Shown here: in pieces, positions 5,949 to 56,721 of the stretch | How positions within the stretch are numbered: the stretch's first letter is position 1 | How the letters are laid out: each line of letters begins with the position of its first letter | Assembly: GCA_043802785.1 (NCBI GenBank) | Contig: JAZDKR010000024.1 | Location: 97-64,096, forward strand | Direction of reading: 5' to 3' | Source of the DNA: Elusimicrobiota bacterium | GTDB taxonomy: Bacteria > Elusimicrobiota > UBA8919 | Length of the DNA stretch: 64,000 nucleotides | Made by a program: the position numbers and the translations under genes | The notes under the pieces: generated by a model | Seen by the model: the letters and a program-made list of their open reading frames with translations, nothing else | Told to the model about the DNA's origin: nothing | Databases searched by the model: none

Positions 5949-5949
5949 T

Positions 5950-7194: not shown

Positions 7195-7195
7195 T

Positions 7196-7552: not shown

Positions 7553-7566
7553 ACATTCACTATTCC

Positions 7567-15352: not shown

Positions 15353-15353
15353 A

Positions 15354-28727: not shown

Positions 28728-29311
28728 CTATTCAATCAAAGTATATGCACCCTCTTGATGCTGGGTCAAATCAAGTCCAATTATCTCATCTATTTCGCTT
28801 ACCCTGACGCCGATGGTTAAATCAACCAATTTGTAAATGATAAATGTCATCGCAAAAGTATAGACAACGGTAACACAAACTGTAATTAACTGCATTATCA
28901 ATTGTTTCGGGTTTCCGAAAAAAAGACCGTTGTTGCCCGCTGGATTTATCAATTTTGAAGCAAAAAGACCCGTTGCCAAAGTTCCTAATATGCCGCTGAT
29001 ACCATGCACCCCAAAAGCATCAAGGGAATCGTCATAGCCCAATTTTGGTTTGATAAGACCGACCGCAACAAAACAGATAACACTAGCCGAAAAACCTATC
29101 AGTATAGCCGATATAACGGCGAAAAAGCAAGCGAGTATCCGAATAAAACCCATTGCAAACTCAAAACGCAAAGAACAATAAAGCACTGCATTAAAATGCC
29201 AAGAACATTTTTTCTTCTAACTATTCCTCCGTAAAAAAATGCAAGCCCTGTCGTCATCAACATCACAAACCCAGCCGATATCAAAACAAAAGCAGTATCT
29301 CCAGAATTCAT
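28728..29311 (-). pseudogene. amtB: Ammonium transporter relic. Only the N-terminal roughly 65 residues and the C-terminal roughly 140 residues remain, in different frames.
   Basis: The two ORFs 29099-29311 and 28728-29186 match the Amt N-terminus (GDTAFVLISAGFVMLMTTGLAFFYGGIVRRKNVL) and C-terminus (DAFGVHGISGILG ...). The span is 584 bp against about 1.2 kb expected. Confidence 0.75.
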
Positions 29312-29465
29312 ATTTCCCCCTAAACAAAAAAGTCCCTAATTCCACTTTTCCCACTTTGGAATTAAAGACCTCAATGTCTAACGAAAATTTTCTAACCGAC
29401 TCTGGCTACTATGAGGACTACATCGTCCTTTACTTTAATTATATCAAAAGCAATATAATTTTGCT

Positions 29466-29588
29466 AATGACTAACTTTTAGATGTTTTTCTCTCCAATCC
29501 TGATGAAGAACAATCGCCGCCATAATAACTGCAAAAAGTATTAACATCCCAAGACCAATATAAAGACCAATATCTTCCATATTCATTC
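29466..29588 (-). CDS. Small hydrophobic peptide of 40 aa (MNMEDIGLYIGLGMLILFAVIMAAIVLHQDWREKHLKVSH), translationally coupled to the upstream gene.
   Basis: An aaaggagaa ribosome-binding site and an ATGA stop/start overlap. Has a paralog at 30560-30652 with the conserved C-terminus KEKHLKVSH. Confidence 0.5.
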
Positions 29589-29786
29589 TCCTTTATCAAT
29601 AATGGTTCCAATAATTACAAATATTATCCAAAAACTCGCACCTAAAAATATCCTGATAATATTTAACTCTCCTGCTACAAAAGAGCCCAAAATAATTATC
29701 GCAAAAACAAAGTTGGCTGCGTTAAAAAATGCTTTTGCTAAATTTTCTCTTTGTTTTTTTGTAAAATTCATTCTGAGCATAATCAT
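29583..29786 (-). CDS. Small two-TM membrane protein of about 62-67 aa.
   Basis: Has a paralog at 30646-30858 (TKKQ(R/K)ENLAK(A/V)FFN ...). Preceded by a conserved promoter. Confidence 0.55.
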   Translation of the reverse strand: MIMLRMNFTKKQRENLAKAFFNAANFVFAIIILGSFVAGELNIIRIFLGASFWIIFVIIGTIIDKGE

Positions 29787-29815
29787 ACAAAATTATCAAA
29801 TTTTGTCAACCCCGT
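29787..29815 (-). promoter_or_regulatory. Sigma70-type promoter, TTGACA-N16/17-TATGAT. The -10 element overlaps the start codon, so the mRNA may be leaderless.
   Basis: Minus strand reads ttgacaaaatttgataattttgtatgattatgctcagaatg. Conserved in the copy at 30859-30887. Confidence 0.55.
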
Positions 29816-30077
29816 CAGAAAGAATTCCAAAATTTCTAACGTGGTCAAGTGCTTTTTTGGTTTTCCCGAATGAAAAATCTTTAATCCCACTTTGGAATTA
29901 AAGACCTCAATGTCTGACGAACATTTTCTAACCAACTATGGTTTGTAAACTATTTTTTAACTAATACAAACAAAATATATCTTGTTACATATTCTCACTG
30001 TTGTCATTGCTTCGTTGTCCCGACTTGTCGGGACTCCTCGCAATGACGCTTTGCATCAATTTACTCCCGAGCGACCT

Positions 30078-30420
30078 TCATATTTCTGTTGGTATAACCT
30101 CTTTTGAGCGAAACTCTTTTGGGACATAAATATATCCGGAATATGGTTTTTTTTCTTTAACAACCATTCCGGCAAGACCTTCGCCTATTTTAAGTGGTGG
30201 TTTTTTCAAATACTCATTTGAAATTGACTGGGAAGCCCTGATTACAAGTTCATTGTTTTCATTTAAAAGCATTAACGAACATATCTTGAAACCAAATACT
30301 TCAGCAGTAATTGTTACAATCAATTTAAGGATATCGTCAAGATAAAGTTCTGAAGTTATTGCCTGTGATATTTTAGTGAGTGCCTCTATTCACTTACACT
30401 TTTTTCTTTCATATTTTTTT
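30078..30420 (-). pseudogene. Truncated, frameshifted paralog of the GAF-ANTAR gene at 24823-25515. Only the N-terminal third remains.
   Basis: About 70 percent identity to residues 30-120 of the full gene, plus an upstream stretch in another frame. No ANTAR domain. Confidence 0.7.
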
Positions 30421-30559
30421 CCTCCACAAAATAAAAAATCCTCATACCGTCTTTGGCGGATGGCAACATATCATCCGCCTATGGCATGAGGACTACATCG
30501 TCCTTTACTTTAATTATATCAAAAGCAATATAATTTTGCTAATGACTAACTTTTAGATG

Positions 30560-30652
30560 TTTTTCTTTTCTATTCTGGTTAATAACAATTCCACCGATAA
30601 CCAAAGTAAAAGCTAACGCCACAAAAAATAACAAAGTAATCTCATTCATATC
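30560..30652 (-). CDS. Small hydrophobic peptide of 36 aa, the second copy.
   Basis: MNEITLLFFVALAFTLVIGGIVINQNRKEKHLKVSH. Same coupling arrangement as the first copy. Confidence 0.5.
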
Positions 30653-30858
30653 CCGTCTCCTGTATCAAGTATCACACCAATAATTAAAAACGCAAGAAAC
30701 AATATTACACCAACAATAAATGTAAATAGCGAAAATTTATCTGGCGTGGCGATTTTTCCTATAATAAGGGAAGCAAAAACAATTTGACTTAAATTAAAGA
30801 AAACTTTTGCTAAATTTTCTTTTTGCTTTTTTGTTAATTTCATTTCTGACATAATCAT
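30646..30858 (-). CDS. Small two-TM membrane protein, the second copy.
   Basis: Paralog of 29583-29786. The promoter TTGACA-N17-TATGAT is conserved at 30859-30887. Confidence 0.55.
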   Translation of the reverse strand: MIMSEMKLTKKQKENLAKVFFNLSQIVFASLIIGKIATPDKFSLFTFIVGVILFLAFLIIGVILDTGDGI

Positions 30859-31081
30859 ACAAAATTAAAAAAATTTGTCAAGTACTTTTTTTGAGAGTTA
30901 TTCAGGTTTGTGGCAAAAATATGAAGTTATTAAATTGTCAAGCCAGAAATTTATTGTATCATTTCCGTATCATCATTGTGAGATTGGTATTGTCAAAAAT
31001 AAAATGAAAAAAAAGACTACCACGAAAACACGTCTGACTGCCATGCCTGTCGTCAGCAGGCGTGGCTATGCTTCTATATTT

Positions 31082-33295: not shown

Positions 33296-33970
33296 TCACC
33301 TCCAAATGAACCAAACAAATAGATAGGATGTGAAAACGGCAACTAATGTGAATGGCAGTCCGATTTTTACGAAATCAAAAAATTTTACGGTATAGCCCTC
33401 TTTTTTTAAGATGCCGCAGGCAACGATATTTGCCGATGCACCTATTGGCGTAATATTCCCTCCGATAGATGCACCTATCAAAAGCCCGAACAAGAATAAC
33501 GACGGACTGACACCAAGATTTGTCGAGACGGACATCGCAACAGGCAACATCGCAGCAAGGTACGGAACATTGTCTATAAACGCCGACAAAAATACAGACA
33601 GAAAAACAATCGCCGTAAAGCCGAGAAATATATTTTGTCCTATCAAACCAGACAGAAATACCTATATTTTTAAAATCCAGCCGTTTAATGTAAGTCCGCC
33701 AACCAAAATAAAAATTGCCATCACATTCCAGTTGATAGCCCAGAAAGCATTTTTTTGTGAAACTGCACCAACCAAAATTAAAATAATTACACTAAGAATT
33801 GAGACCTTTGTTCTTCGGTGGGGAAGTATTACAAAAAGTATGTATGCGAGCAAAAACACAGCAAGAGAAATAAACTCTTTGTTCATAGTAAATCTGATCC
33901 TTTGCGTTTTATCGTCCCATATTTCGTATCTCGTGTAGGGCAAACCTTCAGGTTTGCTTATTGTTCGCAA
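33296..33970 (-). pseudogene. ArsB/NhaD-superfamily permease relic. The N-terminal and C-terminal roughly 100 aa remain; the middle is deleted.
   Basis: Two ORFs (33662-33970 and 33296-33646) match the N-terminus and the C-terminus (IDNVPYLAAMLP ...) of anion-permease-type transporters. About 0.67 kb remain of an expected 1.2 kb. Confidence 0.6.
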
Positions 33971-34735: not shown

Positions 34736-35467
34736 TTATTTCTTTTCTTCTTTCTTGGCAGCAGGAGCAGCAGCTTCTTTTTTCGAGACGGTAGCAGGTT
34801 TTGCTTCCTCGCCTTCCTCGCCTTCCTCGGAGAGTTCCTTCTTACCCTTACTTATTACCTCAGGCTCGGCAGCCGCTTCGCCAACTACGGCACTCGGCGT
34901 AACTTCTTCAAGGATCGTCGGTGATGCAATGTTAACAATTATCTGGTCTGGCGCAATTAGAACTTCAACATCTTTTGACAGAACCAAATCCTTTACAAGG
35001 ACCACATTGCCTATCTCAAGATTTGAAATATCAACTATGATTTTCTCGGGAATATCCAAAGGCAGACACTTCACTTTCAGTTCTCGGACGATGTGTGAAA
35101 GAACACCACCGGACCGAAGGACTCCGGGCGCGGAACCTTCAAGTACGACCGGAATAGAAATCTCAATTTTCTTTTTCATACTGATCTGATAAAAATCAAT
35201 ATGGGAAATCGCTCTGGTTATGATATTTTTTTGAATATCCTTTATCAGAACTGTTTTTGAGGTCTTGTCCGGTATGTTAAGCGAGATTATAACATTATGT
35301 CCCGCCCTTTTAAGCAGTGTTCCAAATTTGGCAGCATCAACGGTAAGAGACATACTTGCCATGTCACCGTAAAGAATCGCCGGAATTTTTCCAGACGCTC
35401 TCAACTTCTTCATTTCACCTTTTGAAACCAATTCCCTTGCCTCTGAATCCAATGTGAATTTTTCCAT
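34736..35467 (-). CDS. rplY: 50S ribosomal protein L25 / general stress protein Ctc, with a low-complexity acidic and lysine-rich tail.
   Basis: Two-domain L25/Ctc pattern. C-terminal EEGEEGEEAKPA...KKEEKK. Confidence 0.85.
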   Translation of the reverse strand: MEKFTLDSEARELVSKGEMKKLRASGKIPAILYGDMASMSLTVDAAKFGTLLKRAGHNVIISLNIPDKTSKTVLIKDIQKNIITRAISHIDFYQISMKKKIEISIPVVLEGSAPGVLRSGGVLSHIVRELKVKCLPLDIPEKIIVDISNLEIGNVVLVKDLVLSKDVEVLIAPDQIIVNIASPTILEEVTPSAVVGEAAAEPEVISKGKKELSEEGEEGEEAKPATVSKKEAAAPAAKKEEKK

Positions 35468-35570
35468 AAAATACCGCTAACCCGACGCAAAACTTACACG
35501 CTAAACCGACGCTAAAATGTTTTGCGTCTGTTCTGCGTTCTTGTTCCGCGTCTGTTTTGCGCTCCTTTTA
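35468..35570. promoter_or_regulatory. ACGCTAAA / GCGTCTGTTTTGCG phased repeat array (B1), upstream of rplY.
   Basis: Related to the arrays at 47156-47232 and 49262-49350. Confidence 0.55.
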
Positions 35571-36509
35571 TCACACAAACAATTCCGACACTGATTTTTC
35601 GTCGTGAATTCTTAATATCGCATCAGCCAGAAGTTTTCCAACGGACAAAACCTTTATCTTTTTTGATTTTGATTTACCGTCTGATATAGAATTGGTAACA
35701 ACCACTTCTTTTACCGACGATTTTTCTATTTTTTCGTAGGCACTACCGGCAAAAATTCCGTGAGCGGCTGTTGCATAAATATCATTTGCACCAGCTTTTT
35801 TCAGTGCTTCAACGGCTTTAGTTAGTGTTCCAGCAGTATCAATCATATCGTCAACTATTATAATGTTTTTGTTTTTTATATCCCCAATAATGTGAATTAC
35901 AGCTGCCTCGTCAGGTGAAAGACGCCTCTTATCTATTATGGCAAGCCCGACTTTCAGTCGCTTGGCAAATGAACGGGCACGCTCAACACCGCCGGCATCA
36001 GGAGATACAACAATAACATCGGACAGTTTTTTCTTTTTGAAATAGTCAACAAGCACAGGACGGACAAACAGATGGTCAACAGGTATATCAAAAAATCCTT
36101 GAATTTGTCCCGCATGTAAATCAAGTGTAAGAATCCTGTTGGCACCGGCAACAGTTATCAAATTGGCAACAAGTTTTGCTGTTATCGGAACTCGCGGCTC
36201 AACTTTTCTGTCCTGACGGGAATATCCGTAATAAGGCATCACAGCCGTAATTCTTCCGGCAGATGCACGACGAAGAGCATCAATGATTATGAGAAGTTCC
36301 ATAAGGTTTTCGTTTGCAGGACTGGAGGTTGGCTGAACTACAAAAGTATCGCAGCCGCGTATGTTTTCCATTATTTTTACACTAACTTCTCCGTCAGGAA
36401 AACGACCTGTTTCCAAAGCACCTGCCGGAACTTTAAGAAAACCACAGACCTCTTTTGTTAAATTGCGATTTGCCGAACCGCTGAAAATTTTTAATTTACC
36501 GTAACTCAT
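35571..36509 (-). CDS. prs: Ribose-phosphate pyrophosphokinase.
   Basis: MSYGKLKIFSGSAN and the overall Prs family pattern. Confidence 0.9.
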   Translation of the reverse strand: MSYGKLKIFSGSANRNLTKEVCGFLKVPAGALETGRFPDGEVSVKIMENIRGCDTFVVQPTSSPANENLMELLIIIDALRRASAGRITAVMPYYGYSRQDRKVEPRVPITAKLVANLITVAGANRILTLDLHAGQIQGFFDIPVDHLFVRPVLVDYFKKKKLSDVIVVSPDAGGVERARSFAKRLKVGLAIIDKRRLSPDEAAVIHIIGDIKNKNIIIVDDMIDTAGTLTKAVEALKKAGANDIYATAAHGIFAGSAYEKIEKSSVKEVVVTNSISDGKSKSKKIKVLSVGKLLADAILRIHDEKSVSELFV

Positions 36510-38225: not shown

Positions 38226-38236
38226 CTGACGGTTCT

Positions 38237-38309
38237 CTGGGGAGGATGGATTCGAACCATCGTAATGACGGCTCCAAAGGCCGTTGCCTTACCGCTTGGC
38301 TACTCCCCA
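38237..38309 (-). tRNA. tRNA-Gln (anticodon UUG).
   Basis: Cloverleaf folded by hand. Sequence is TGGGGAGTAGCCAAGCGGTAAGGCAACGGCCTTTGGAGCCGTC...GGTTCGAATCC...CTCCCCA. It resembles the E. coli tRNA-Gln 5' half. Confidence 0.7.
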
Positions 38310-38360
38310 ATTACGCTCCCTCGCCAAAGACGAGTCCGCCTCTGGCAGAAAAGGCCGTTG

Positions 38361-38391
38361 CCTTATCCGCATAAGTGTACTACTCCACAAT
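38361..38391 (-). pseudogene. Degenerate partial copy of the 5' half of tRNA-Gln.
   Basis: aaaggccgttgccttatccgc ... ctactccacaatta compared with the tRNA sequence aaaggccgttgccttaccgcttggctactccccaatta. Confidence 0.5.
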
Positions 38392-41329: not shown

Positions 41330-41548
41330 ATCTTGCTGTGCGTGACTGCGGAGCATCAATTTATAAGGTCATTGCGAGCGTTAGCGCTTTGTGACAGAAG
41401 TTCCCGATAGTACTTGTCATTGCGAGGTGAAACCGCCCGCCAAACTGTTACCGAAATTGTGAAGTATTACACATAGGCGGGTGGCAATCCCATAGCGAGA
41501 TTGCTTCGTCGGTCGCCCGAGGCGACCTCCTCGCAATGACACTTCACC
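41330..41548. repeat. Cluster of CATTGCGAGG / CCTCGCAATGAC palindromic elements.
   Basis: gtcattgcgagcg..., gtcattgcgaggtgaaaccgcccgcc ... cctcgcaatgacac. Relatives at 29990-30075, 44150-44290 and 48270-48312. Confidence 0.7.
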
Positions 41549-42348
41549 CTACTTCTTTCTGTATGCCTCTAAATATGAGTCGCAATAAAGTTGTTTGCCG
41601 AGGAGCAGTTCTGTTGTTATCATTGAATTCATCAATTCTTTATCAAGTGGATTTAAAATTGCAGCGTCAAGTCCTGCCTCCAAAGCCATAACAAGAAATG
41701 TTCTGTCAACGAGCATTCTGTCAAGTGTTCCCTGTGACACATTTGACAAACCCAAAATTGTTTTCGGAGGTGGGTCGCAAATAATTTTACATTGTTTGAT
41801 TGTTTCCAAGACAGCACGGGAATGATCCTGGGCAACATTTACAGGAAGAATAACCGCATCAATATAAAGATTTTCCATCTCAATTCCATACTCCATTGAT
41901 GAGCAACTATATTCGCCGCAATCTCTAACCGTGCTTCTGCATTCGCAGGAACTCCTGACTTAGTCATTGTCAAAGCGATAACTTTTGAGTTGTATTTTTT
42001 TGCAAGAGGAAGAAGAACATCAAGTTTTTCTTTCTGCCCTGAAGTAGAATTCAAAAATGAGCCGGGACCTGCCAATGAAAGCCCTCTTTCCATAACAACT
42101 AATTTTGTCGTGTCAACAGCGAGTGGTTTATCAGTCACTTCACGAATTACCGTAATTAACCATTCCATATCTTTCAATGGATCTATTGATGCTGGTCCCA
42201 CATTTACATCAAGGACATCAGCACCTGCTTCTAATTGTTTTTTCGCAAGTTCCTGAATTATCAGTTTGTTTTTTGTCTGAATTGCTTCACTGACATTTTT
42301 AAACATCCCGTTAATCTTTTCACCGATAATAAGCATAAACACCCCCAT
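41549..42348 (-). pseudogene. Pterin-binding methyltransferase (MeTr/AcsE-like, methyltetrahydrofolate:corrinoid methyltransferase family), split by a frameshift near 41839-41896.
   Basis: N-terminal MLIIGEKINGMFKNVSEAIQ ... LDVNVG and a C-terminal half in the second ORF. The frames overlap by about 58 nt, with no homopolymer at the junction. Confidence 0.6.
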
Positions 42349-42365
42349 TAAAATCCGTGAATCGT

Positions 42366-42417
42366 GTAGTTGCCCGATTTATCGGGCATAAAGGCGCTCA
42401 ATAAATTGAGCAACTAC
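42366..42417. repeat. Complete 52-bp element bounded by terminal inverted repeats, gtagttgcccgatttatcgggcataaaggcgctcaataaattgagcaactac.
   Basis: The two ends, gtagttgc and gcaactac, are inverted repeats of each other. Confidence 0.8.
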
Positions 42418-42477
42418 AAAACTGCGACTACACAAACCATGCAACATTGAAATTCTTCACCTGCGGTGAACCTACTC

Positions 42478-42550
42478 GGCGATACAACAATCTAACGCTG
42501 ATATTCGCAAATATTCGCGTTGTCTCTTATTCGCGTCCATTCGCGTTTTT
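42478..42550. promoter_or_regulatory. CGCGAA phased array (A5), upstream of the MeTr gene.
   Basis: Sequence ctaacgctgatattcgcaaatattcgcgttgtctcttattcgcgtccattcgcg. Confidence 0.55.
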
Positions 42551-44149: not shown

Positions 44150-44290
44150 TTTTGTTTGTCATTGCGAGGTGAAACCACCCGCCCCAAAGGGGCGAGGCCT
44201 CGCCATATGCGGGTGGCAATCCCAAAAAATAGATTGCTTCGTCCTCCGACTTCGTCGGAGTCCTCGCAATGACAACCAAATTAAAATTTG
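44150..44290. repeat. CATTGCGAGG-family palindromic element pair.
   Basis: gtcattgcgaggtgaaaccacccgcc ... cctcgcaatgacaac. Confidence 0.7.
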
Positions 44291-44390: not shown

Positions 44391-45884
<1,494 letters not shown>

Positions 45885-45936
45885 AACATAGCCGTTGTCG
45901 TGTAGTTCAAATTCCCTATTCCATATTCCCTACCTA

Positions 45937-47139
45937 CTATCTACTACTTATTGCTTCTTTTAACATTGCCGCTTTATCTGTTTTTTCCCAACTAAACTCG
46001 CTTCTTCCGAAATGCCCGTAAGCAGCCGTCTTCTGATAAATCGGTTTATGAAGTTCAAGCGTTTCTATTATCCCTCTCGGTGTTAATAAAAATATTTCCC
46101 TTACCGCTTTTTCAAGTTTGTCATCGGCAACACCTGTTCCGAGTGAATCAACCATTATTGAAACCGGCTCAGCAATACCAATTGCATATGCTAATTGAAT
46201 TATGCATTTCTCTGCTAAACCTGCGGCAACGATATTTTTTGCGATGTACCTTGACATATAACACGCAGAACGGTCAACTTTCGTCGGATCCTTTCCTGAA
46301 AATGCTCCGCCACCGTGAGGTGCCATACCACCGTAAGTATCAACAATGATTTTTCTGCCGGTCATTCCCGTATCCGACTGCGGACCACCTATTACAAATC
46401 TGCCCGTAGGATTTATGTAACAGTCATTTTTGAAACTGAACTTTTCTAAAAGATTTTTTGGAATTGTAGGAACGATTACCGTCTCAATTATTTCCTCTTT
46501 TGCCCAGTTGGCAAGATTTCCAGTTTTCTTGTCCACGGAATCCTCGGTGTGCTGTGTTGAAATAACTATTTTCTCAACGGAAACTGGTCTGCCATCAACA
46601 TATCTTACTGTAACCTGTGATTTACCGTCGGGACCGATGTATTTCAAAATATTTTTTTTCCTTACTTCCGCAAGCCGCATTGTAAGTTTTTGTGCAAGCA
46701 TTATCGGTAGCGGCATCAATTCTTTCGTCTCGTTACAGGCATAACCAATCATAAGTCCCTGGTCGCCTGCACCTATTTCTTTCCCTTTTCTTCCAACACC
46801 CTGCGAAATATCCGGCGACTGGCGGCCGATTGCATTAAGTATCCCGCAGGTCTGGTAATTAAAACCATATTTCATGTCCGTATAGCCGATGTCTTTGATA
46901 ACGCCGCGCGCTAAATTCTGGACATCAATATAGGCATTAGTGGTTATTTCACCACCGACAATTAAAAGACCGACGGTAATGTATGTCTCACAGGCAACCC
47001 GACACCGAAAATTATTTTTCAACGGCGGGTCATGTCTATAGACCTCATCCAATACTGCATCCGAAATTTGGTCGCAGACCTTATCAGGATGCCCTTCCGT
47101 CACCGACTCCGAAGTGAACACATAATTTCCACTAAACAT
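45937..47139 (-). CDS. metK: S-adenosylmethionine synthetase.
   Basis: [23 protein letters not shown] and the overall MetK pattern. Confidence 0.9.
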
Positions 47140-47155
47140 TTTCTCCCCCTTAAAG

Positions 47156-47232
47156 ACCGCTAAACTGACGCTAAACTTTGAAAACCCGCGAAACTAACGC
47201 GAAATGTTTTGCGTCTGTTTTGCGGTTGTTAG
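47156..47232. promoter_or_regulatory. ACGCTAAA / ACGCGAAA phased array (B2), upstream of metK.
   Basis: Sequence ccgctaaactgacgctaaactttgaaaacccgcgaaactaacgcgaaatgttttgcgtctgttttgcg. Confidence 0.55.
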
Positions 47233-48882
47233 ATTATCACAAATTTTTTCGGCAAAATCAAGTAATTTTTTTGTTTTGCCGAGTGAATCTGTTTCAGAGT
47301 ATGTCCTTAAAATCGGCTCTGTTCCCGACGGACGAAGCAATAGCCAACCTGTCCCGCCAAGGCGGGACGGATCAAAAATTATTTTTATTCCGTCATAGGT
47401 TCTGATTTCCTTGATCCCGCCGAGGCGAGACGCGAATTGCCACGAATTTCCGCCAAAGGCGGACGAATTGGGACGAATTTTTTGTTCAATCTGTTTAACA
47501 AATTCTTGCTTATCAACGGGCTTTGAAAGTTTTATATCTCTTCTTAAATAATATGATTTCCCGAATCTTTTTTGCAAATCATCAACTAACTGTGAAAGTT
47601 TTTTCTTTGTTTGCGAAAGCATCTCGGTAATTAAAAGTGCATTTAAGATACCGTCTCGTTCCGGTATGCTGCCTTTCCATCCGTAACCGCCGGATTCTTC
47701 ACCACCGAGCAAAACATTTTCAGCGAGCATTTTTTCACAAACATACTTGAAACCGACAGGAACCTCTTCAAAAGGGAGACAAAATTTTTTCGCAATTCTT
47801 TCGGAAAGATACCCAAGTGAAATCGCCTGAACAACTTTTCCTTTTATTTTTCTTCCTTCTACAAGATACAACAAAATCAGAGGAAAAACAATATGCGGTG
47901 AAAGATATCTGCCTTTGTCGTCTATAACACCCAAGCGGTCAGCGTCGCCGTCAAAAGCAAAACCTACGGCTGCCCCATTTTTCAATACCACTTTTTTTAG
48001 TTCTGTGAGATTTTTTTCTATCGGCTCGGGATTTACTCCGGCAAATAATGGGTCATGAGAATTATGTATTGAATAAATCTTTGAGATTCTTCGTCCCGTT
48101 ATGCGGGACTCAGAATGACTTTGCGAGTCATTTTTGAATCCGCCACAGACGGACTCAAAAATACCAACGCCGCTTCCATGCATATAATCAAGGACAATTT
48201 TGGATTTTGATGATGGATTCAATCTAACAAGTGATTTCAGATATTTTTTGTAATCGCTGATAATATCCACTCTTCGCGTCATTGCGAGGTCGTCACTGCG
48301 ACCTCGCAATGACAATTGTTGGATATCCTCATTATTAGTTTTGACAGCACTCTTATACAGATGTTTTGAAATTGTATTTATGATTTTTTCCGAAACAGAA
48401 CCTCCGTATTGAAGTTTTATTTTTAGACCGTTCCAGTCGGGCGGATTATGACTTGCCGTTATCATCACCCCAAGACAATTGTTTTTTTTACAAAAAAATG
48501 AGACCGATGGCGAAGTTGCTGCCGTCTGCGAAACCGCCGAATGTATCCCATTCGCAGAAATAACTCTTGCAACATGGAGTGCAAATTTCTCCGAAAGAAA
48601 CCTGTTGTCATACCCGACGATAACGACAGGGGATAGGGGGTAGGGGATAGGGTGTAGCGGCGAATGTAAATTCGCTAAATTTGTCCGCCTAGGCGGACCG
48701 CTACACCCTACTCCCTCCACACTACACTCTGCCTTTATATAATCCGCAATCGCCTGAGCAACTATTCCAACATTCTCAAAGGTAAAGTCCCTTGCAATTA
48801 TCCCGCGCCACCCGTCAGTACCAAACTTAATGGCAGGGGATAGGGGATAGGGGATAGGGGATAGTAGTTTTTGTTTTTCCAT
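47194..48882 (-). CDS. Phosphomannomutase / phosphoglucomutase family enzyme carrying about five in-frame repeat insertions.
   Basis: FGTDGWRG, TASHNP, RPSGTEP. Inserts at about 48834-48870, 48627-48729, 48270-48312, 48069-48132 and 47415-47472. Confidence 0.8.
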   Translation of the reverse strand: MEKQKLLSPIPYPLSPAIKFGTDGWRGIIARDFTFENVGIVAQAIADYIKAECSVEGVGCSGPPRRTNLANLHSPLHPIPYPLSPVVIVGYDNRFLSEKFALHVARVISANGIHSAVSQTAATSPSVSFFCKKNNCLGVMITASHNPPDWNGLKIKLQYGGSVSEKIINTISKHLYKSAVKTNNEDIQQLSLRGRSDDLAMTRRVDIISDYKKYLKSLVRLNPSSKSKIVLDYMHGSGVGIFESVCGGFKNDSQSHSESRITGRRISKIYSIHNSHDPLFAGVNPEPIEKNLTELKKVVLKNGAAVGFAFDGDADRLGVIDDKGRYLSPHIVFPLILLYLVEGRKIKGKVVQAISLGYLSERIAKKFCLPFEEVPVGFKYVCEKMLAENVLLGGEESGGYGWKGSIPERDGILNALLITEMLSQTKKKLSQLVDDLQKRFGKSYYLRRDIKLSKPVDKQEFVKQIEQKIRPNSSAFGGNSWQFASRLGGIKEIRTYDGIKIIFDPSRLGGTGWLLLRPSGTEPILRTYSETDSLGKTKKLLDFAEKICDNLTTAKQTQNISR

Positions 48883-48884
48883 TT

Positions 48885-49256
48885 TTATTGTCCGTGTTTA
48901 TCAGTGTCCCTGCCATAATCGTCTTCCAGACGGACAACATCCCAGACCTCCGGAGTTGAAACCTCCAAAAGTGTTACATCACAAAATTTAGAATGCATCC
49001 TGTGAATTTTTTTCGGCGGGATGACGATAACTGAACCTTCTTTCATTATTTTTTTCTCGGAGCGAAGCGAAGATCCCGCAAAGCGGGATAACTCCATAAT
49101 GTATCTACCCTTTAGCGTGTAAATCGTCTCGTGTTTTATTTTATGATACTGTTTGCTTAAGCGATGACCTTTTTTAATAAAAAGGATTTTGCCCACATAT
49201 TTTTTCGTCTGAGCGAACCACTTTTCATATCCCCACGGTTTTTTGACAATTTTCAT
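48885..49256 (-). CDS. Stand-alone cupin, similar to the mannose-6-phosphate-isomerase type II C-terminal domain. Carries an in-frame repeat insertion at about 49049-49094.
   Basis: KPWGYEKW ... LSKQYH. The insert ELSRFAGSSLRSEKK is encoded by ggagcgaagcgaagatcccgcaaagcgggat. Confidence 0.55.
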   Translation of the reverse strand: MKIVKKPWGYEKWFAQTKKYVGKILFIKKGHRLSKQYHKIKHETIYTLKGRYIMELSRFAGSSLRSEKKIMKEGSVIVIPPKKIHRMHSKFCDVTLLEVSTPEVWDVVRLEDDYGRDTDKHGQ

Positions 49257-49261
49257 AAAGA

Positions 49262-49350
49262 ACCGCTAAACTGACGCTAAACTTTGAAAACCCGCGAAAC
49301 CAACGCTAAATGTTTCGCGTCTGTTTCGCGTTCTTTTTCGCGTCTGTTTT
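49262..49350. promoter_or_regulatory. ACGCTAAA / GCGTCTGTTT phased array (B3), upstream of the cupin gene.
   Basis: Nearly identical to 47156-47232, plus extra gcgtctgtt units. Confidence 0.55.
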
Positions 49351-49356
49351 GCGTTC

Positions 49357-50475
49357 CTATAGTTTGCTGTAACTTTTTATAACTGTTTTGTCGGCAATGG
49401 TGCATCCATCGGTTAAATAAGAATGTTCTTCAATTGTGCAATTTTTGCCAATAACTGATTTTTCAATTTTGCTATTTTTCTGTATTCTTGTGCCGTCTAA
49501 AACTATGCAATCGGATAGAAAACAATTTTCCCCAATTTTAACATTATTTCCTAAACATACATTGCCGGAAATTGTGGTTTTTTCAGATAGTTGGGTATTA
49601 TCACCCACGACAAGATGACCGAAAACTCTTACACTTTTTGCTATTTTTGATTCTTTGCCAATAACATTTTTTTTCATCTGGTTCATCAAATCATTGTGAA
49701 TCTGCAAATATTTTTCCGTAGTCCCAATATCAATCCAGTAAGCAGAATAAATGTAACCATAAAAAGGAATTTTTTTGTTAAGTAATGTAGGGAACAGTTC
49801 CCGCTCGACGGAATAAATAACATCAAGCGGCATTTCCTTGAAAATTTCCGGTTCAAAAATATATGTGCCGGCATTGACAGTATCTACGGTAATCTGGCTA
49901 ATAGATGGCTTTTCCAGAAATTGCAATATCTTTCCGTCTTTTGCCGTCTCAACAAGACCAAAACTTGTGGGGTCTGGAACTCTGATGAGGGAAACAGTCA
50001 CCTTTGATTTTTTTTTCTTGTGGAATTGTACAAGTTTTGCCAGATTAATTTCCGTCAGAACATCCCCGTTGAAAATAATAACGGAATCGTCCACAAATTT
50101 TTCGGCATTTTTAATTGCGCCACCAGTCCCAAGAGGCGTTTTCTCAACAGCATATGATATTTTGACACCGAATTTTTTACCATCACCGAAATATTTTTTA
50201 AACTCCGACGGTAAATAAGCCATGCAAAGAATAATGTCTTTTATTCCGTACTTTTTGAGAAGTTCTATCTGATACAAAGAAAACGGTTTGTTGAGCACGG
50301 GCAACAACGGTTTTGGAGTGTTGCAAGTCAATGGTCTAAGCCGCGTGCCAAATCCGCCAATAAGAATTATTGCTTTCATAGTTCGCTCACTCCGTTCACT
50401 CACACGCGAATTTACGCTAATTCCCGCTTCGGCGGGACTAATATTCGCGAATATCTGCGTTCCATTCGCGACCAT
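49357..50475 (-). CDS. Mannose-1-phosphate guanylyltransferase (GDP-mannose pyrophosphorylase) with a left-handed-helix C-terminus. The likely start is MKAIILIGGFG, near 50379.
   Basis: MKAIILIGGFGTRLRPLT...PKPLLP, the nucleotidyltransferase signature. Confidence 0.75.
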   Translation of the reverse strand: MVANGTQIFANISPAEAGISVNSRVSERSERTMKAIILIGGFGTRLRPLTCNTPKPLLPVLNKPFSLYQIELLKKYGIKDIILCMAYLPSEFKKYFGDGKKFGVKISYAVEKTPLGTGGAIKNAEKFVDDSVIIFNGDVLTEINLAKLVQFHKKKKSKVTVSLIRVPDPTSFGLVETAKDGKILQFLEKPSISQITVDTVNAGTYIFEPEIFKEMPLDVIYSVERELFPTLLNKKIPFYGYIYSAYWIDIGTTEKYLQIHNDLMNQMKKNVIGKESKIAKSVRVFGHLVVGDNTQLSEKTTISGNVCLGNNVKIGENCFLSDCIVLDGTRIQKNSKIEKSVIGKNCTIEEHSYLTDGCTIADKTVIKSYSKL

Positions 50476-50510
50476 TCGCGTTGTTTTTATTCGCGTTTAT
50501 TCGCATTTTC
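50396..50510. promoter_or_regulatory. CGCGAA phased array (A6). The core is almost identical to 9556-9695.
   Basis: Sequence atattcgcgaatatctgcgttccattcgcgaccattcgcgttgtttttattcgcgtttattcgc. Confidence 0.65.
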
Positions 50511-51534: not shown

Positions 51535-52307
51535 ATAATATTTTTCGAAATCTTGGATTTGCCAATCGATCTATCGGCAAAAAATATAGGGTACTCAAAA
51601 ATTTTATATCCGAGTTTGTGTGCCCTGTATTTCATTTCTATCAAAAATCCATAACCCTCTGACTTCACTTCGTCAAGATTTATATTTTCCAGCACTTTAC
51701 GACGGAAACCCATAAAACCAGATGTGCAGTCATTAACAGGCATACATAAAACTGTTTTCGCATACAAATTCCCCAGACGGGATATTATTTTTCTATGGAC
51801 GGGCATTGAATTACAACCGCCTTTTACATAACGAGAACCGACTACTAAATCATAACTTTTGAGTTTTTTTAGGAACCCCAAAAAACATTCCGGGTTATGG
51901 GAAAAATCTGCATCCATAGTAAAAATAAAATCAAAATCTCTTACCAAAGCCCACTTAAATCCTTGAATGTATGCTGTCCCAAGTCCAAGTTTTTTTTCAC
52001 GATGAATAATTTCTAATTGAGATTGCGAAGATTGTTCCAATTCTGTCATATGAGATTGCTTCGTCGTCCCGATCTTATCGGGACTCCTCGCAATGACACT
52101 TTGTGCCGCTTTTAACCCTTCCGATATCTCTCCCGTTCCGTCGGGCGAATTATCGTCAATGATTAAGAGATTGAGATCGCCCGCCACACGGATCGGCGAG
52201 TCCGCCTTTGGCGGAAGATTGAGAACTTGGTCAACAATCTTTTCTATATTTTCTCTCTCGTTATATGTCGGGATTATAATCAAAACTTTACTTTTTTTTA
52301 GTGACAT
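51477..52307 (-). CDS. GT2 glycosyltransferase, polyprenol-phosphate mannosyltransferase-like. Carries two in-frame repeat insertions at about 52175-52214 and 52040-52105.
   Basis: IIIPTYNEREN ... DDNSPDGT. The inserts encode PPKADSPIRVAGD and ...ARSPDKIGTTKQSHMTEL... Confidence 0.7.
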   Translation of the reverse strand: MSLKKSKVLIIIPTYNERENIEKIVDQVLNLPPKADSPIRVAGDLNLLIIDDNSPDGTGEISEGLKAAQSVIARSPDKIGTTKQSHMTELEQSSQSQLEIIHREKKLGLGTAYIQGFKWALVRDFDFIFTMDADFSHNPECFLGFLKKLKSYDLVVGSRYVKGGCNSMPVHRKIISRLGNLYAKTVLCMPVNDCTSGFMGFRRKVLENINLDEVKSEGYGFLIEMKYRAHKLGYKIFEYPIFFADRSIGKSKISKNIIWEAIFLVWKLKFMEIQPQ

Positions 52308-53436
52308 ATTTTAATGTTTTCTTTGAATAATTGTAATAAGAAATATGCGGGCGACCTTGTTTATCAAGCATTATGGATGTATCAAATCCGACAATACCTT
52401 CGGCATCAATCGTCTGAATTTTCCATTCAGAACCCGTCCAGTAAGCATATTTAAGGTCAGAGTTGCCATAATACGAAACGTGCGGAGTCACATCAGGCAA
52501 CTTTGCATCCAGAGTTATTGATGTATATTCACCAACATAACCTTCACTGTCAACCGTCTGGATAGCCCATGCAGAACCAGTCCAGTGAGCATATTTTAAA
52601 TCCCTATTGGTAGCATCATAATATGCTATATGCGGAAAATTATTGCTATCAACCACTATGGAACTATCTTCACCAACTTCACCTGTTGAATCAACCGTCT
52701 GAATATCCCACGAAGAACCAGTCCAACGAGCATATTTTAAATCACCGTTGGTAGAATCATAATATGCTATATGCGGAAAATTATTGCTATCAATCGCGAT
52801 GGAGGTGAACTTGCCTACCGCACCGGCTGAATCAACCATCTGAATATTCCACGAAGAACCAGTCCAATGAGCATACTTTAAGTCGCCGTTGGTAGAATCA
52901 TAATATGCTATATGTTTGAAATCGTTACTAACCGCTATGGAACTATCTTCACCGACTTCGCCTATTGAATCAACCGTCTGAACATCCCACGATAAACCAT
53001 CCCAACGAGCATACTTTAAATCCTTGTTGGTAGAATCATAATACGCTATATGTGAAAAATTGCTACTGACTGCTATAGATGTGAACTTGTATGTTTCACC
53101 GTTAGACGGAGTATATTGTTTTTCCCAAGAATTGCCTGTCCATTTAAGATACCCTACACCTTTTTTGCTACAAAACGAAAGATTAGGAAAATCATTACTA
53201 TCAAGGCACATTGAAGCATACTCTCCTTCTTCATCACTTTCTGAAGTAAGCGTTTGGATATCCCAGCCGTCAACTGGCAAAGATACCACCACTTTTTCGT
53301 CTGTTAGATTTACATTTAATCTTCTTTCCGACTCACAATAAAGGCAGGAAGTGGTAAGTAGTAAGTGGTAAGTGGTAAGGATTAAGAAGGCAGAATTAAG
53401 TAACTTGTTCATCTGTACAATCTGTAATTTTCTCAT
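52288..53436 (-). CDS. Secreted protein made of about 6 tandem repeats of roughly 46 aa (YYDSTNGDLKYA[HR]WTGSSW.IQTVDS.G.VG..SSI ... PHIA).
   Basis: Signal peptide. At the DNA level this is a tandem unit of about 138 bp with high identity. Confidence 0.6.
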   Translation of the reverse strand: MRKLQIVQMNKLLNSAFLILTTYHLLLTTSCLYCESERRLNVNLTDEKVVVSLPVDGWDIQTLTSESDEEGEYASMCLDSNDFPNLSFCSKKGVGYLKWTGNSWEKQYTPSNGETYKFTSIAVSSNFSHIAYYDSTNKDLKYARWDGLSWDVQTVDSIGEVGEDSSIAVSNDFKHIAYYDSTNGDLKYAHWTGSSWNIQMVDSAGAVGKFTSIAIDSNNFPHIAYYDSTNGDLKYARWTGSSWDIQTVDSTGEVGEDSSIVVDSNNFPHIAYYDATNRDLKYAHWTGSAWAIQTVDSEGYVGEYTSITLDAKLPDVTPHVSYYGNSDLKYAYWTGSEWKIQTIDAEGIVGFDTSIMLDKQGRPHISYYNYSKKTLKYVTKKK

Positions 53437-53537: not shown

Positions 53538-54866
53538 TTATTCTCCATCCTCTACATACGACAGTCCAATAAAAAAAGTAATCGGTAATAATATACGCGC
53601 GGTCGTTAAATTATTCTCAAAAAAACCGGCAATCATCAGCATTATGATAGAATACCCAACAGCAAGGTTTAGTGTGCATCTAACACTTCCTTTTTCAGCC
53701 ATCCGTGCACGCTTAAACGCCATTATGGAATTGCCAAACCAAAACAGGACAAAAAGAATTAAACCAATTAAACCCTCGCTAACACCGACATTCAGATATG
53801 TATTATGCGGATGTCCCTTGAGTACATTTAATATATCTTTTTCACTACTTCCCCCTTTATAACACCTGGAAACAATCCATAATAACGGATATTGCTCCTT
53901 TTCCTTTTCAAAATATACTTCTACCTCTTTCCCCCAATTTTCATAGCCGACACCAATTATAGGATGGTTTTTCATTATTTTCAATGCTGTTCCCCACATC
54001 CATAATCGCTCAACATTACTTAAATTTTCTTTCGTATCAAATATACTTATAATTCTACTTTTTATGCTGAAAGAATACTTAAATATACCAATAAACAAAA
54101 GGAAAATCAATCCGGTTCCTAATATGAACCATTTTATTTTTTTTCTCAATAGTATCAATAGTACCGTCAATAAAGTTGCTACATAATATGTTCTTGATCC
54201 ATTCAAAAGAACCGCAATAAAATTAAGCAACGTCAAAACAAATAAACCAACTTTTATTTTCACATTTTCATTAGAATAACAAAAAAATATAAAAGATACT
54301 ATTGCTATTATACTGTAATACCCTCCGGTGTGTAAAAAATTCCTGAAATTCAAACCGATAAATCTGCCGTTTATAAACGGTTGGTTTTTCAAAAATGGAT
54401 AATCAAAATGAAAAATATGCTGTAAAATCCCCAGCAATACAACAAAAGAAGCAACAACCAAAGTAGAATAAACGATTACTTTTATTTTCTTGATATGTAA
54501 CTGCGGAATAACAAAATACGGAAGATGATCCCAAAATTTCCCTCCGTATTTAATCCAATTTGAAGGATTAAAAAAAACTCTCATTGCACGCCAAAAATAA
54601 AGAAAAAGCAGCGGCAACCCTTCCCAACTGGAAAAAAACTTCTTTCCCAACACGAGATTTATTAAAACAATTAAAAGCAGCAAGCCCAGAATAATATTAG
54701 TAACAGCAATTGAGATTGATGTACTTACACCATAAATAACAAGAAGTATAAATATCGTATCGGTAAATATTTTTTTGTCAGTCAGAATGTTTTTCATATC
54801 TATTTTGTCAACTAAATTGTAGTTGCCTGATTTATCAGGCATAACATCGCCCAATAAATTGGGCAA
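53538..54866 (-). CDS. O-antigen ligase/polymerase family membrane protein. The likely start is MKNILTDKK, near 54797.
   Basis: About 10 TM helices and a periplasmic loop with HPHNTYLNVGVSEGLIG. The reported N-terminal 23 residues are encoded by a miniature element. Confidence 0.65.
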   Translation of the reverse strand: MPNLLGDVMPDKSGNYNLVDKIDMKNILTDKKIFTDTIFILLVIYGVSTSISIAVTNIILGLLLLIVLINLVLGKKFFSSWEGLPLLFLYFWRAMRVFFNPSNWIKYGGKFWDHLPYFVIPQLHIKKIKVIVYSTLVVASFVVLLGILQHIFHFDYPFLKNQPFINGRFIGLNFRNFLHTGGYYSIIAIVSFIFFCYSNENVKIKVGLFVLTLLNFIAVLLNGSRTYYVATLLTVLLILLRKKIKWFILGTGLIFLLFIGIFKYSFSIKSRIISIFDTKENLSNVERLWMWGTALKIMKNHPIIGVGYENWGKEVEVYFEKEKEQYPLLWIVSRCYKGGSSEKDILNVLKGHPHNTYLNVGVSEGLIGLILFVLFWFGNSIMAFKRARMAEKGSVRCTLNLAVGYSIIMLMIAGFFENNLTTARILLPITFFIGLSYVEDGE

Positions 54867-54870
54867 CTAC
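54819..54870. repeat. GTAGTTGC/GCAACTAC miniature element. It supplies the TAG stop of the capD-like gene.
   Basis: Sequence gtagttgcctgatttatcaggcataacatcgcccaataaattgggcaactac. Confidence 0.8.
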
Positions 54871-56721
54871 TTGTCTATATTCGCGGGGGCATAATTGGGA
54901 ACCATTTCTTTTAATTTAAGAATGATTTTTTCCTCGTCCATTATAACAGCAAAATGCTCCAGTTCCCTTATATCTTTCCTGATTTTAGATGGGTCAAGAT
55001 TTTCAGGAGTGGTTACATATATTTTTCTATGCTTTGTAATTTTATCTTTTTCTTTGTCCAAAAGTATTTCTTCGTAAAGTTTTTCGCCGGGACGAAGTCC
55101 AACATATTTAATTGAAATATCTTTGTCTAATTTAAGCCCCGAAAGAGCAATAAGGTTTTTTGCCAAATCAACAATTTTTATCTGCTCACCCATATCCAAA
55201 ATAAAAATTTCGCCGACGCCAGAACCCATCGCACCCGCCTGTAGGACAAGTTGCGCCGCCTCGGGAATACTCATAAAATATCTTCGAACATCCGGGTGAG
55301 TTACCGTTACAGGTCCGCCATCCTCAATCTGTTTTTTGAACAATGGAATTACGCTGCCTGTTGAACCGAGAACATTTCCGAAACGAACCGCTATAAACTT
55401 TGTTTTGCTGAACCCTGCTTTTGCCTGCAAAATTTTCTCCGCAACCCTCTTTGTTGCACCCATAACATTTGCTGGATTGACTGCTTTATCGGTAGAAATA
55501 AGAACAAACCGTTCAACTTTGTAATGATGTGAGGCATAAATTAAATTTCTGGAACCAATAATATTATTTTTTATCGCCGAGACCGGATTTTCTTCCATCA
55601 GAGGAACATGCTTATGCGCTGCAGCGTGAAAAACGACATCCGGCCTGTAAGTAAAAAATATGTGCCTCAATAACCCGACATCCTTTATATCTCCAATTAT
55701 TGTCTTATATTTCAATTGGGGATAGAGGGTGGAAAATTCAACTCCGAGATAATAAACATAATTTTCGTGGTTATCCAAAAGAATCAAAAGTTCAGGCGAA
55801 AATTTCACTATTTGCCGACACAACTCCGCACCAATTGAACCACCGGCACCGGTGACCAAAACCCGTTTGTTTCTGATGTAGGAACTTATTTCCGTTTCGT
55901 CTATTTTTACCGATTCCCTGCCCAACAAATCATCCGGCTGAACTTTGCGCGGCTTCACTTCAAGATGCCCGGATATTATTTTATCAAACCCTGGAACGAT
56001 TTTTATATTTGCATCCGTCATCTCGCAATACGAAAGAATGTCTCTTATTGCTTCGCCTTTCACAGACGGTATTGCCAAAATTATTTCTTCAACATCGTAT
56101 TTTGAAACCACATCAGGAATAATTTTTCTGCCACCGAAGATTTTCAAACCGAATATAGAATGCCTTTTTTTGGCAGTGTCGTCGTCAATAAAACCGACTA
56201 TATTCAAGCCAGCGAGCAAATTATTCTGACACTCCCTCAAAACCGCTATTCCCGCCTGACCCGCACCGACAATCAGAACATTCTTTTTTTTTTGTTGTCA
56301 GTGATTCCTTGAATCTTTCTCTTATTAAACGGGTAAAAAACCTGACACCCGATACAAAAACAGTGCACAAAATAAAGTCAATTATGAAAACGGAACGAGG
56401 AAATCCGAAAAAAGTATGATAAAAAAATACGGTTGCAGCGAAAACGACATTAGCAAGAAAATTAGCGAGTATTATATCCCATAAATCGCCAATACTTACA
56501 TATCTCCACAAACCTGTGAACAGTCCGAAAAAATAAAAGAAAAGAAGTTTTATGATAATCAAAAACGGAAGAGTTCTTAAAATAACTTGCCAGTTTTCAG
56601 GAAAAAATGTAAATTCAAACCGAAGATAAAACGCCGAGATATATGCAATAATGATCAGGCACAAATGAAGCAGCACAATCAGAGGCCTTCGTAAATTAAC
56701 TATTATTTTTTTTATGTTCAT
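54867..56721 (-). pseudogene. CapD/WbpM/PglF-like membrane-anchored polysaccharide dehydratase, split by a +1 frameshift at an A10 tract (56284-56293).
   Basis: The N-terminal ORF (56221-56721) has 4 TM helices. The C-terminal ORF has the SDR dehydratase domain. The alternative frame across the tract reads KNVLIVGAGQAGIAVLRECQ. A9 would restore the reading frame. Confidence 0.75.

Follow-up and report, generated by a model that had tools for sequence, protein, structure and literature searches.

A 64-kb stretch of a contig from the metagenome-assembled genome of an uncultured Elusimicrobiota bacterium (the window, 38% G+C) contains three homologous copies of a short repeat, family B, each of which takes up the entire spacer between two same-strand genes. 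Family B is a hairpin, and comparison with the same gene junctions in relatives indicates that it is probably a co-transcribed repeat resembling repetitive extragenic palindromes (REPs) or MITEs (miniature transposable elements with inverted repeats), tolerated at gene junctions, as opposed to a gene-specific regulator. A previous sequence-only reading had described the copies as arrays of a phased unit upstream of metK, a cupin gene and rplY, possibly variants of one regulatory cassette shared with a second family, A. The array description missed the dyad symmetry.

The minus strand carries every window gene of at least 100 amino acids with a Pfam match, so the mRNA sense is obtained by reverse-complementing the sequence as given. 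On the plus strand, units in the left half of each copy (CGC[T/G]AAAC) are the reverse complements of those in the right half (GTTT[T/C]GCG), so that each copy constitutes a single dyad or hairpin and not a run of direct repeats. On the mRNA strand the unit reads GACGC-r-AAAC-a in the 5′ arm, with its complement in the 3′ arm (CGCGAAAC/GUUUCGCG), and units are spaced 11–12 nt apart, in agreement with the 10–12 bp phasing noted before. The elements are ∼75–105 nt long and their arms are short tandem arrays of the 11-nt unit. In the stem, helices of 4–5 bp (GACGC/GCGUC and AAAC/GUUU) alternate with single mismatches to give ∼24–38 pairs in total, and complementarity continues through the inter-unit linkers. 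The number of units is unequal between the two arms and among copies. The hairpins are gapped, and an ungapped inverted-repeat finder misses them. Family B termini are ACCGC…GCGGT, with inverted termini ACCGCTAAAC…GTTTTGCGGT. Like a MITE, the element has terminal inverted repeats and no coding capacity, and the whole of it is a dyad.

B1 (47156–47232, minus strand) lies between the PMM gene and metK, B2 (49257–49356, minus strand) between an NTP-transferase gene and a cupin (mannose-6-P-isomerase-like) gene, and B3 (35468–35570, minus strand) between prs and the L25/Ctc gene (rplY). All flanking genes are on the minus strand, and the gene-to-gene gaps are 54, 100 and 103 nt, respectively; the very short gaps reported upstream of metK and the cupin gene are thus real. 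The three copies score 78, 107 and 117 bits against a family B covariance model and are pairwise 85–94% identical. In the window repeat alignment, 47156–47224 matches 49262–49330 at 94% identity over 69 nt without gaps, somewhat better than the estimate of about 90% over 70 bp made from inspection. The B2 interval first recognized, 49262–49350, was placed correctly and needed only a slight extension at either end. The third copy, already reported upstream of rplY, is B3, in which segment 35511–35537 aligns with both B1 and B2. Alignments among B copies are long and far beyond chance, and the consensus structure of the aligned copies contains 25 pairs, 6 of which have changed on both sides. Folding of the sense strand gives minimum free energies of −27.5 (B1), −39.4 (B2) and −39.5 kcal/mol (B3), with z-scores of −2.8, −5.1 and −5.7. 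The opposite strand also folds (z −4.9 to −6.2; −4.9 for the B1 plus strand).

The hairpins are fitted closely to the genes around them. The B1 5′ arm, in the transcribed sense, is truncated, and the PMM open reading frame (ORF) extends 39 nt into the element, which supplies its last 13 codons and its stop codon (TAG, 47194–47196, minus strand); the encoded tail, ..TTAKQTQNISR, is missing in homologues. On the far side, the Shine-Dalgarno sequence GGGGGAG (47143–47149) and the metK ATG (47137–47139; both minus strand) start 7 nt past the B1 3′ base. B2 has four units per arm, and a tandem duplication of two units (23 nt) in one arm (49304–49353, minus strand, comprising 49304–49330 and 49327–49353) that is absent from B1. 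Its 5′ base directly abuts the stop codon of the NTP-transferase gene (TAG, 49357–49359, minus strand) and its 3′ base the cupin ATG (49254–49256, minus strand), which opens an N-terminus, MKIVKKPWG, kept in relatives. No Shine-Dalgarno sequence occurs between the B2 hairpin and the cupin start codon. For B3, the prs stop codon (TGA, 35571–35573) and a Shine-Dalgarno-like AAGGAG (35562–35567; both minus strand) precede the hairpin on its 5′ side; the L25/Ctc ATG (35465–35467, minus strand) is 7 nt past the B3 3′ base. The predicted B3 stem pairs the prs UGA region with the L25 AUG region, and the predicted stems of both B2 and B3 take in the start-codon region. Overall, the distance from the closed stem to the stop codon upstream, and to the start codon or Shine-Dalgarno sequence downstream, is 0–8 nt, which would account for the tolerance of family B in tight junctions, even within an ATGA overlap (see below).

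Contigs of relatives were reached through protein matches (L081/L082, L083, L084, L085 and L086; L132–L135). Concatenated MetK, AhcY and NTP-transferase sequences are 87–89% identical to those of the window in L081 and L083–L085, and 80% identical in L086; gene order is conserved between window and relatives. Other routes yielded little. In a MetK scan of genome contigs the best relative did not exceed 66% identity, an exact look-up of MetK and PMM in a contig index gave no match, and a metagenome DNA scan with AAATGTTTYGCGTCTGTTYYGCG gave 0 matches. A metagenome scan with L25 recovered only distant homologues and was swamped by a low-complexity EEGEEGEE pattern.

At the NTP-transferase/cupin junction, L085 has an overlapping ATGA stop/start (AAACTATGAAAAT) and no hairpin, whereas the window and L081 read AAACTAT, a hairpin of ∼100 nt, then TATGAAAAT, with the hairpin placed exactly at the L085 overlap. 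The insert brings a new stop codon and retains the ATG. In L086, a hairpin of a different family occupies the identical point. The PMM/metK junction is equally variable: family B is present in the window, a remnant of a B 5′ arm in L083, a AGGATTAAG-type hairpin in L081, a GGAAGTGG-type hairpin in L084 and a family A type in L086, while L085 has only a 30-nt spacer with the same TTAAGGAGGAGGGAAAATG and no hairpin. Between prs and the L25 gene, the window and L133 are occupied and L134 has an empty, 15-nt spacer. Orthologous sites thus show the presence/absence polymorphism typical of MITEs (empty in L085 and L134; occupied in the window, L081 and L133). Family B is dispensable and subject to turnover, as junction occupancy varies among relatives.

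Where family B is found in relatives, the unit sequence differs and both arms have changed together. The L081 hairpin at the NTP-transferase/cupin junction aligns over its full length with B1–B3, but its unit is CACGGAAC/GUUCCGUG; it folds at −46 kcal/mol (z −6.8). B2 and this positional counterpart are 64–72% identical, and fourfold-degenerate sites of the flanking genes are 51–63% identical between the window and L081. The sequence has therefore drifted almost at the synonymous rate, and pairing has nonetheless been retained. A covariance model built from four copies detected two copies outside the training set, in L133 (E 1.2e-7) and L135 (E 6.3e-7). The first is the prs-to-L25 hairpin, whose unit is of the L081 type and one of whose arms contains a nested mini-hairpin; the second lies between a transporter gene and an H+-PPase gene and has a third unit variant, CGCAAAG/CUUUGCG. 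The CRCGGAAC variant is common to L081, where it sits at the NTP-transferase/cupin junction, and L133, where it sits between prs and the L25 gene. Cross-lineage pairs of B copies are 72–81% identical whether or not they share a junction, as compared with 85–94% for pairs within the window. Copies thus cluster by genome and not by site, which argues for gene conversion among copies or for spread later than the separation of the lineages. Slippage is suggested as the origin of length change by the 23-nt duplication and by arms that differ in their number of units.

These observations can be assembled into a model in which transposition or gene conversion would copy or homogenize family B as DNA, with unit number shifting by slippage. 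The element would then be transcribed within operon mRNA, where the stem may hold together the two ends of the junction, with the stop codon on one side and the start codon or Shine-Dalgarno sequence on the other, and so preserve coupling between termination and reinitiation. By analogy with bacterial interspersed mosaic elements (BIMEs), REPs and Correia elements, the hairpin could also be a barrier to 3′ exonucleases, a processing site of the RNase III type, or both, stabilizing or separating mRNA segments; family B is perhaps an mRNA stabilizer or processing site. A split Shine-Dalgarno arrangement, with the ribosome-binding sequence 5′ of the hairpin and the AUG 3′ of it, was also considered. 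It fits B3 (AAGGAG) and, weakly, B2 (AGGA) and L081 (AAGAAA); we retain it as possible without adopting it as the mechanism.

Several observations weigh against a REP- or MITE-like repeat. No transposase or REP-associated tyrosine transposase (RAYT) gene was found among the window ORFs scanned, and there is no clear target-site duplication: a possible TAT…TAT flank appears at the NTP-transferase/cupin junction by comparison with the empty L085 site, and none is evident at B1 or B3. For these reasons, mobility is something we only infer. Just three copies were seen, in 64 kb. At the prs/L25 junction the order of Shine-Dalgarno sequence and hairpin differs, the former being 5′ of the latter in the window and 3′ of it in L133, so the two hairpins may not descend from the same ancestral insertion. 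The maintenance of pairing through near-neutral divergence suggests a benefit to the host or correction of one arm by the other, beyond a purely selfish model. In a strand-symmetric arm alignment of 30 curated hairpins, the arms contain 108 G·U and 59 A·C mismatches on the mRNA strand (p 2e-4), but the counts for family B alone are 20 and 15, which is not significant; the fourfold sites of this strand also have more T than A, and mutational strand bias may accordingly explain much of the G·U excess. The excess lends weak support to selection on RNA pairing. An automated census of local folds (173 sense, 53 antisense) was discarded, as it is confounded by G+U-rich coding sequence.

The strongest competing explanation, which we regard as unlikely though worth serious consideration, is that the hairpins are RNA punctuation serving the host, i.e. 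intercistronic terminators, attenuators or RNase III signals comparable to the intercistronic sites of phage T7 or the stems of rRNA intervening sequences, and that their repeat character is secondary. Retention of pairing at about synonymous-rate divergence is expected of such signals, and stems of 24–38 bp are long enough for RNase III, which cleaves Correia hairpins (PMC10969869). There is also a resemblance to terminators: the 8 nt after the stem contain 5 T in B2, B3 and L081 (4 in B1), and in the former three an A-rich 5′ flank is complementary to this T-rich tail. A gene for a protein of the 23S rRNA intervening-sequence type, moreover, lies within a window hairpin of like design (described below). 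On the other side, terminator-like sites are not enriched in the window (14 found, 16.4 expected), and the scan did not call the B elements. What comes after most hairpins of tandem-unit design is a Shine-Dalgarno sequence or a run rich in A, and not a U-tract. An intrinsic terminator has a G+C-rich stem with a U-tract directly after it; the B stem is long, A+U-rich and bulged, and its tail has the T counts given above. The elements are embedded in conserved strings of genes and reach up to the following start codon, and do not mark the ends of transcription units. An efficient terminator immediately before the L25 and metK starts, where no significantly promoter-like sequence precedes the gene, would be polar. 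The element is also absent from these junctions in close relatives, and the same hairpin types occur within coding sequences.

To a broader and more speculative proposal we assign a rather low probability. Tandem-unit palindromes, families A and B included, would form a whole system maintained by this Elusimicrobiota clade, copied and homogenized by dedicated machinery that recognizes hairpins, and would act as intervening sequences at the RNA level, by bridging stop and start codons (hairpin-bridged translational coupling), by RNase III excision in the manner of rRNA intervening sequences, or both. For the hairpin families built of heptamers, a cassette encoding a TIGR02436 four-helix bundle would be the candidate machinery.

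It is improbable, in our judgement, that the palindromes simply grew in place, through slippage of units and fold-back or template-switch copying between arms, with no transposition. The build of the arms as tandem arrays, the two-unit duplication found in B2 and not in B1, the variation of unit number between arms and copies, and the existence of many unrelated unit types would all follow from such a process. As a source of the copies, independent growth is excluded by the 94% identity of B1 and B2 over 69 nt, which runs across the irregular, non-repetitive segment CTTTGAAAACCC. The presence of one family at three or more unlinked junctions, in several lineages, points the same way.

Regulatory readings of the element do less well. 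A gene-specific role as cis-regulatory RNA in the metK, cupin or rplY leader is very unlikely for family B, be it a riboswitch, an attenuator, a thermosensor or an autoregulatory protein site. Genes for MetK and for ribosomal proteins are often regulated through their leaders, family B is placed directly upstream of start codons, and the start-codon region is part of the B2 and B3 stems, as noted. Yet the products of the three downstream genes (MetK, the cupin and L25) are functionally unrelated, and the same genes in relatives are preceded by no hairpin or by an unrelated one. The stem is repetitive and simple, a helix in which no internal loop or junction suited to a ligand pocket is conserved, and an Rfam search of the 64 kb brought only a tRNA-Gln to the gathering score and no known element of a 5′ untranslated region (UTR). 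A regulatory cassette consisting of phased direct repeats that precede particular genes is not supported, the downstream genes being unrelated and the corresponding junctions in close relatives being empty or otherwise filled.

Marginally less probable again is an array of binding sites for a transcription factor or nucleoid protein, made up of phased 11-bp units. Units do recur at about one helical turn, BIME and REP elements are known to bind IHF and gyrase, and a dimeric binding protein co-evolving with its sites would likewise make the two arms change jointly. An array does not explain why direct copies are all on one side and inverted copies all on the other, or why the linkers are complementary as well. 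The elements are located inside operons, between coupled genes and even in coding sequence, and not at promoters. At least five unrelated unit types occur within one architecture; as many cognate proteins would be needed, and the common denominator is therefore intramolecular pairing and not a shared binding motif. Among known systems, an iteron or transcription-factor array was rejected: direct units are confined to one arm and inverted units to the other, and both arms change together between lineages. Readings of the element as a CRISPR array, an integron attC site or a riboswitch were rejected as well. A chimeric fold-back or other artefact of assembly or amplification, conceivable in a metagenome-assembled genome, can be set aside, as assemblies made independently from other samples and with other pipelines (NCBI, JGI, ENA and Logan) have homologous hairpins at these junctions and the flanking ORFs are intact.

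The proposed kinship of families A and B rested on a shared CGCGAA unit, which is indeed present in both. Hairpins of family A, with units ACGCGAAT and ATTCGCGT, occur at 632–715, 2920–3014 (z −4.7), 3364–3434, 9574–9691 (z −5.3), 42474–42546 (partly decayed, z −1.5) and 50404–50496, all on the minus strand; the last is at the epimerase/NTP-transferase junction and has a mini-hairpin nested at 50422–50437. The two families have the same build, with tandem 10–11-nt ACGC[G/T]AA.. units on one arm and complements on the other, and this part of the likeness holds. Covariance hits between them are marginal. After the B copies themselves, the next-best matches to the B model in a scan of 234 kb are family A hairpins, with E-values of 0.015–0.9 (for example 0.93 for 632–715 and 0.16 for 3364–3434; 2920–3014 scores 22.5 bits). 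L084 also has a family A hairpin at its epimerase/NTP-transferase junction (4505–4589, E 0.018). Relatives contain intermediate units, namely CACGAAT (L085 and L086), CACGGAAC (L081 and L133) and CGCAAAG (L135). A common origin of families A and B is plausible from these comparisons and only marginally supported. The octamer ACGC(G/T)AAA, previously proposed as the repeated unit, fared unevenly: 9 of its 11 window matches fall inside the three elements, but as a bare 8-mer it is not significantly enriched (11 matches to ACGCKAAA against 6.1 expected, with 6 of 100 shuffles reaching 11).

Families A and B are part of a larger set. The window has ∼19 hairpins of tandem-unit design, with at least five unit types, among them ACGCGAAT (family A, six copies), AGGATTAAG, AGAGATTAGG and GGGGATA/GGGTTTA; they occur in spacers and also in frame within genes. 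Of 23 window spacers, 13 fold at z ≤ −2.8. With a strict detector, which requires tandem exact 6-mers on one side and their complements in tandem on the other, density was 4.7 per 100 kb in the window and 6.3 per 100 kb in relatives, as compared with 0.31 per 100 kb across 650 kb from different phyla; the count was 0 for other metagenome loci (164 kb). The design is thus ∼15–20 times commoner in this Elusimicrobiota clade than in the other loci examined. The PMM gene (47194–48882) is open and encodes 562 amino acids, against 463–481 in relatives without inserts. The excess is due to in-frame inserts encoded by hairpin repeats, of which there are at least five (e.g. 48615–48745, 48278–48315 and 47352–47367); PMM genes of relatives have different inserts in other loops. 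The NTP-transferase ORF (49357–50475) is ∼32 codons longer than its orthologues (372 against 340 amino acids) because it reads into the family A hairpin, and its true start is probably near 50379.

Further repeats were observed in the window. One family, TGTAGT[C/T]GCC-hairpin…GAGCAACTACA, is found at 187–274, 42365–42419, 45792–45886 and 54818–54872; it has the GTAG motif typical of REPs and forms inverted doublets like those of REPINs. Mini-hairpins of 15–16 nt, TCCCGC-loop-GCGGGA, occur at 47352–47367, 49074–49088 and 50422–50437 (3 found, 0 expected), two of them inside coding sequence and one in a family A arm, and a similar one is present in the L133 family B hairpin. Hairpins of the type GTCATTGCGAGG…CCTCGCAATGAC lie at 41380–41548, 44150–44290, 48278–48315 and ∼30040–30090, both in spacers and inside the PMM gene, and are also found in L081 spacers.

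Among described systems, the REP, BIME and REPIN elements of Proteobacteria, with their RAYT genes (PMC3116915, PMC3337134), are among those that family B resembles. Like them, it is a short non-coding palindrome in gene gaps, often within operons and presumably co-transcribed, that forms a dispersed population within one genome and persists vertically with lineage-specific master sequences. It differs in construction, as each arm is a tandem series of 11-nt units, none of them palindromic in itself, in place of two short REP palindromes and a spacer. The GTAG/GTGG 5′ motif is lacking in family B, GTAG being confined to the separate TGTAGTTGCC.. family of the window; other differences are the phylum (Elusimicrobiota) and the way in which B fills junctions up to the stop and start codons. 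REPs go with a cognate single-copy RAYT gene flanked by the repeats, and no RAYT gene was seen among the window ORFs scanned. REPs number tens to hundreds per genome, all extragenic; for family B, three copies are seen in 64 kb, all at gene junctions. Roles proposed for REPs include stabilization of mRNA and, near a stop codon, an effect on translation.

Hairpin-folding bacterial MITEs (Correia, ERIC, RUP, BOX and SPRITE; PMC10969869) likewise have terminal inverted repeats, no coding capacity, a length of ∼100 nt and transcripts that form stable stem-loops. Effects of such MITEs on host mRNAs through RNase III or RNase E are known (PMC10969869), and SPRITE is terminator-like, as is B with its A-rich and T-rich flanks. 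These MITEs consist of unique sequence bounded by terminal inverted repeats, whereas B is one whole dyad of tandem units; nor does B come with a clear target-site duplication, or with a parent insertion sequence in the window or in the fetched loci. Rickettsia palindromic elements (PMC10969869) are inserted in frame in housekeeping genes and translated, as are some tandem-unit hairpins of the window, B1 with its contribution to PMM included. They are ∼150 bp long and encode a conserved peptide, as opposed to the low-complexity tandem-unit peptides of the window inserts, and family B itself is found only at gene junctions.

Integron attC sites, in turn, are imperfect palindromes of 60–140 bp between promoterless same-strand ORFs with little spacer, and their structure is conserved over sequence, as in B. 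The B termini GCAAAAC and GTTTAGC (mRNA strand) do not fit the RYYYAAC and GTTRRRY cores, the flanking genes are syntenic housekeeping genes and not cassettes, and the window has no integrase gene. The short tandemly repeated repetitive (STRR) heptamers and small dispersed repeats of cyanobacteria are reportedly intergenic 7-nt tandem units, often in inverted pairs, with nested tiny hairpins and lineage-specific distribution. The unit of family B is 11–12 nt and the phylum is another, although other window hairpin families do use 7-nt units. Finally, 23S rRNA intervening sequences (PF05635/TIGR02436) share with the window the bracketing of an insert by a stem of terminal inverted repeats. Here the insert is found between protein-coding genes and not in rRNA, and no PF05635 gene is tied to family B. 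A literature search gave nothing relevant on such hairpins in Elusimicrobia or on mobility of PF05635 genes. Family B is new within a known kind, the intergenic hairpin repeat, and is of more interest as part of a clade-wide set of hairpins.

A PF05635/TIGR02436 four-helix-bundle gene (‘23S rRNA intervening-sequence protein’; 7196–7552, minus strand) lies in the loop of a hairpin at 7125–7595, the arms of which are GGGGATA-type heptamer arrays with termini GGCAGGG…CCCTGCC and overlap the 3′ end of an FtsX gene and the signal-peptide region of an M23 peptidase gene. An unrelated contig, L136, has a like layout between purQ-like and purF genes, with arms at 1436–1497 and 1861–1897 (34 nt, 79% complementary). 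Hairpins with GGCAGGG…CCCTGCC termini and no gene are found in the window at 5815–5949, 14820–14970 and 48615–48745. The PF05635 hairpin and the gene-less hairpins look like a pairing of autonomous and non-autonomous elements.

Other features of the window were recorded. A near-consensus sigma-70 promoter is present in four copies (15352–15383, 24718–24749, 29781–29812 and 30853–30884, minus strand). The first (TTGACA, 17 nt, TATAAT) is directly followed by a tandem-unit hairpin, from which it appears that hairpins also begin 5′ UTRs. A duplication of ∼1.07 kb (29411–30881; copies 83–87% identical) contains small hydrophobic ORFs and a promoter copy, and adjoins a truncated ammonium-transporter gene (28728–29186). 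Four tandem repeats of 141 nt (47 codons), 78–86% identical, occupy 52501–53061 within an ORF (52288–53436) that has a weak match to DUF7253. Apparent split or truncated genes are found at 41549–42348 and 33296–33970; a pterin-binding methyltransferase is broken into two ORFs, and a CitMHS transporter is represented only by a fragment, compared with a 425-amino-acid gene in relatives. The tRNA-Gln gene is at 38236–38310 (minus strand), and 15 nt of it (38277–38291) are exactly repeated at 38351–38365, and this copy might be left over from an integration or a duplication.

Such hairpins matter to annotators: they lengthen ORFs artificially, give rise to spurious N- and C-terminal extensions, as in the PMM tail and the NTP-transferase ORF, and could be taken for regulatory arrays. 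Biologically, the NTP-transferase/cupin junction is a natural experiment in which a stem-loop of ∼100 nt has been inserted precisely at an overlapping stop/start, presumably with operon expression unbroken, and in which the arms stay complementary despite drift. The link between heptamer-armed hairpins and PF05635 is a lead on the role of a widespread and uncharacterized group of four-helix-bundle genes. If the hairpins are processed, or bridge translational coupling, they would amount to a lineage-wide punctuation of polycistronic mRNAs in a poorly known phylum.

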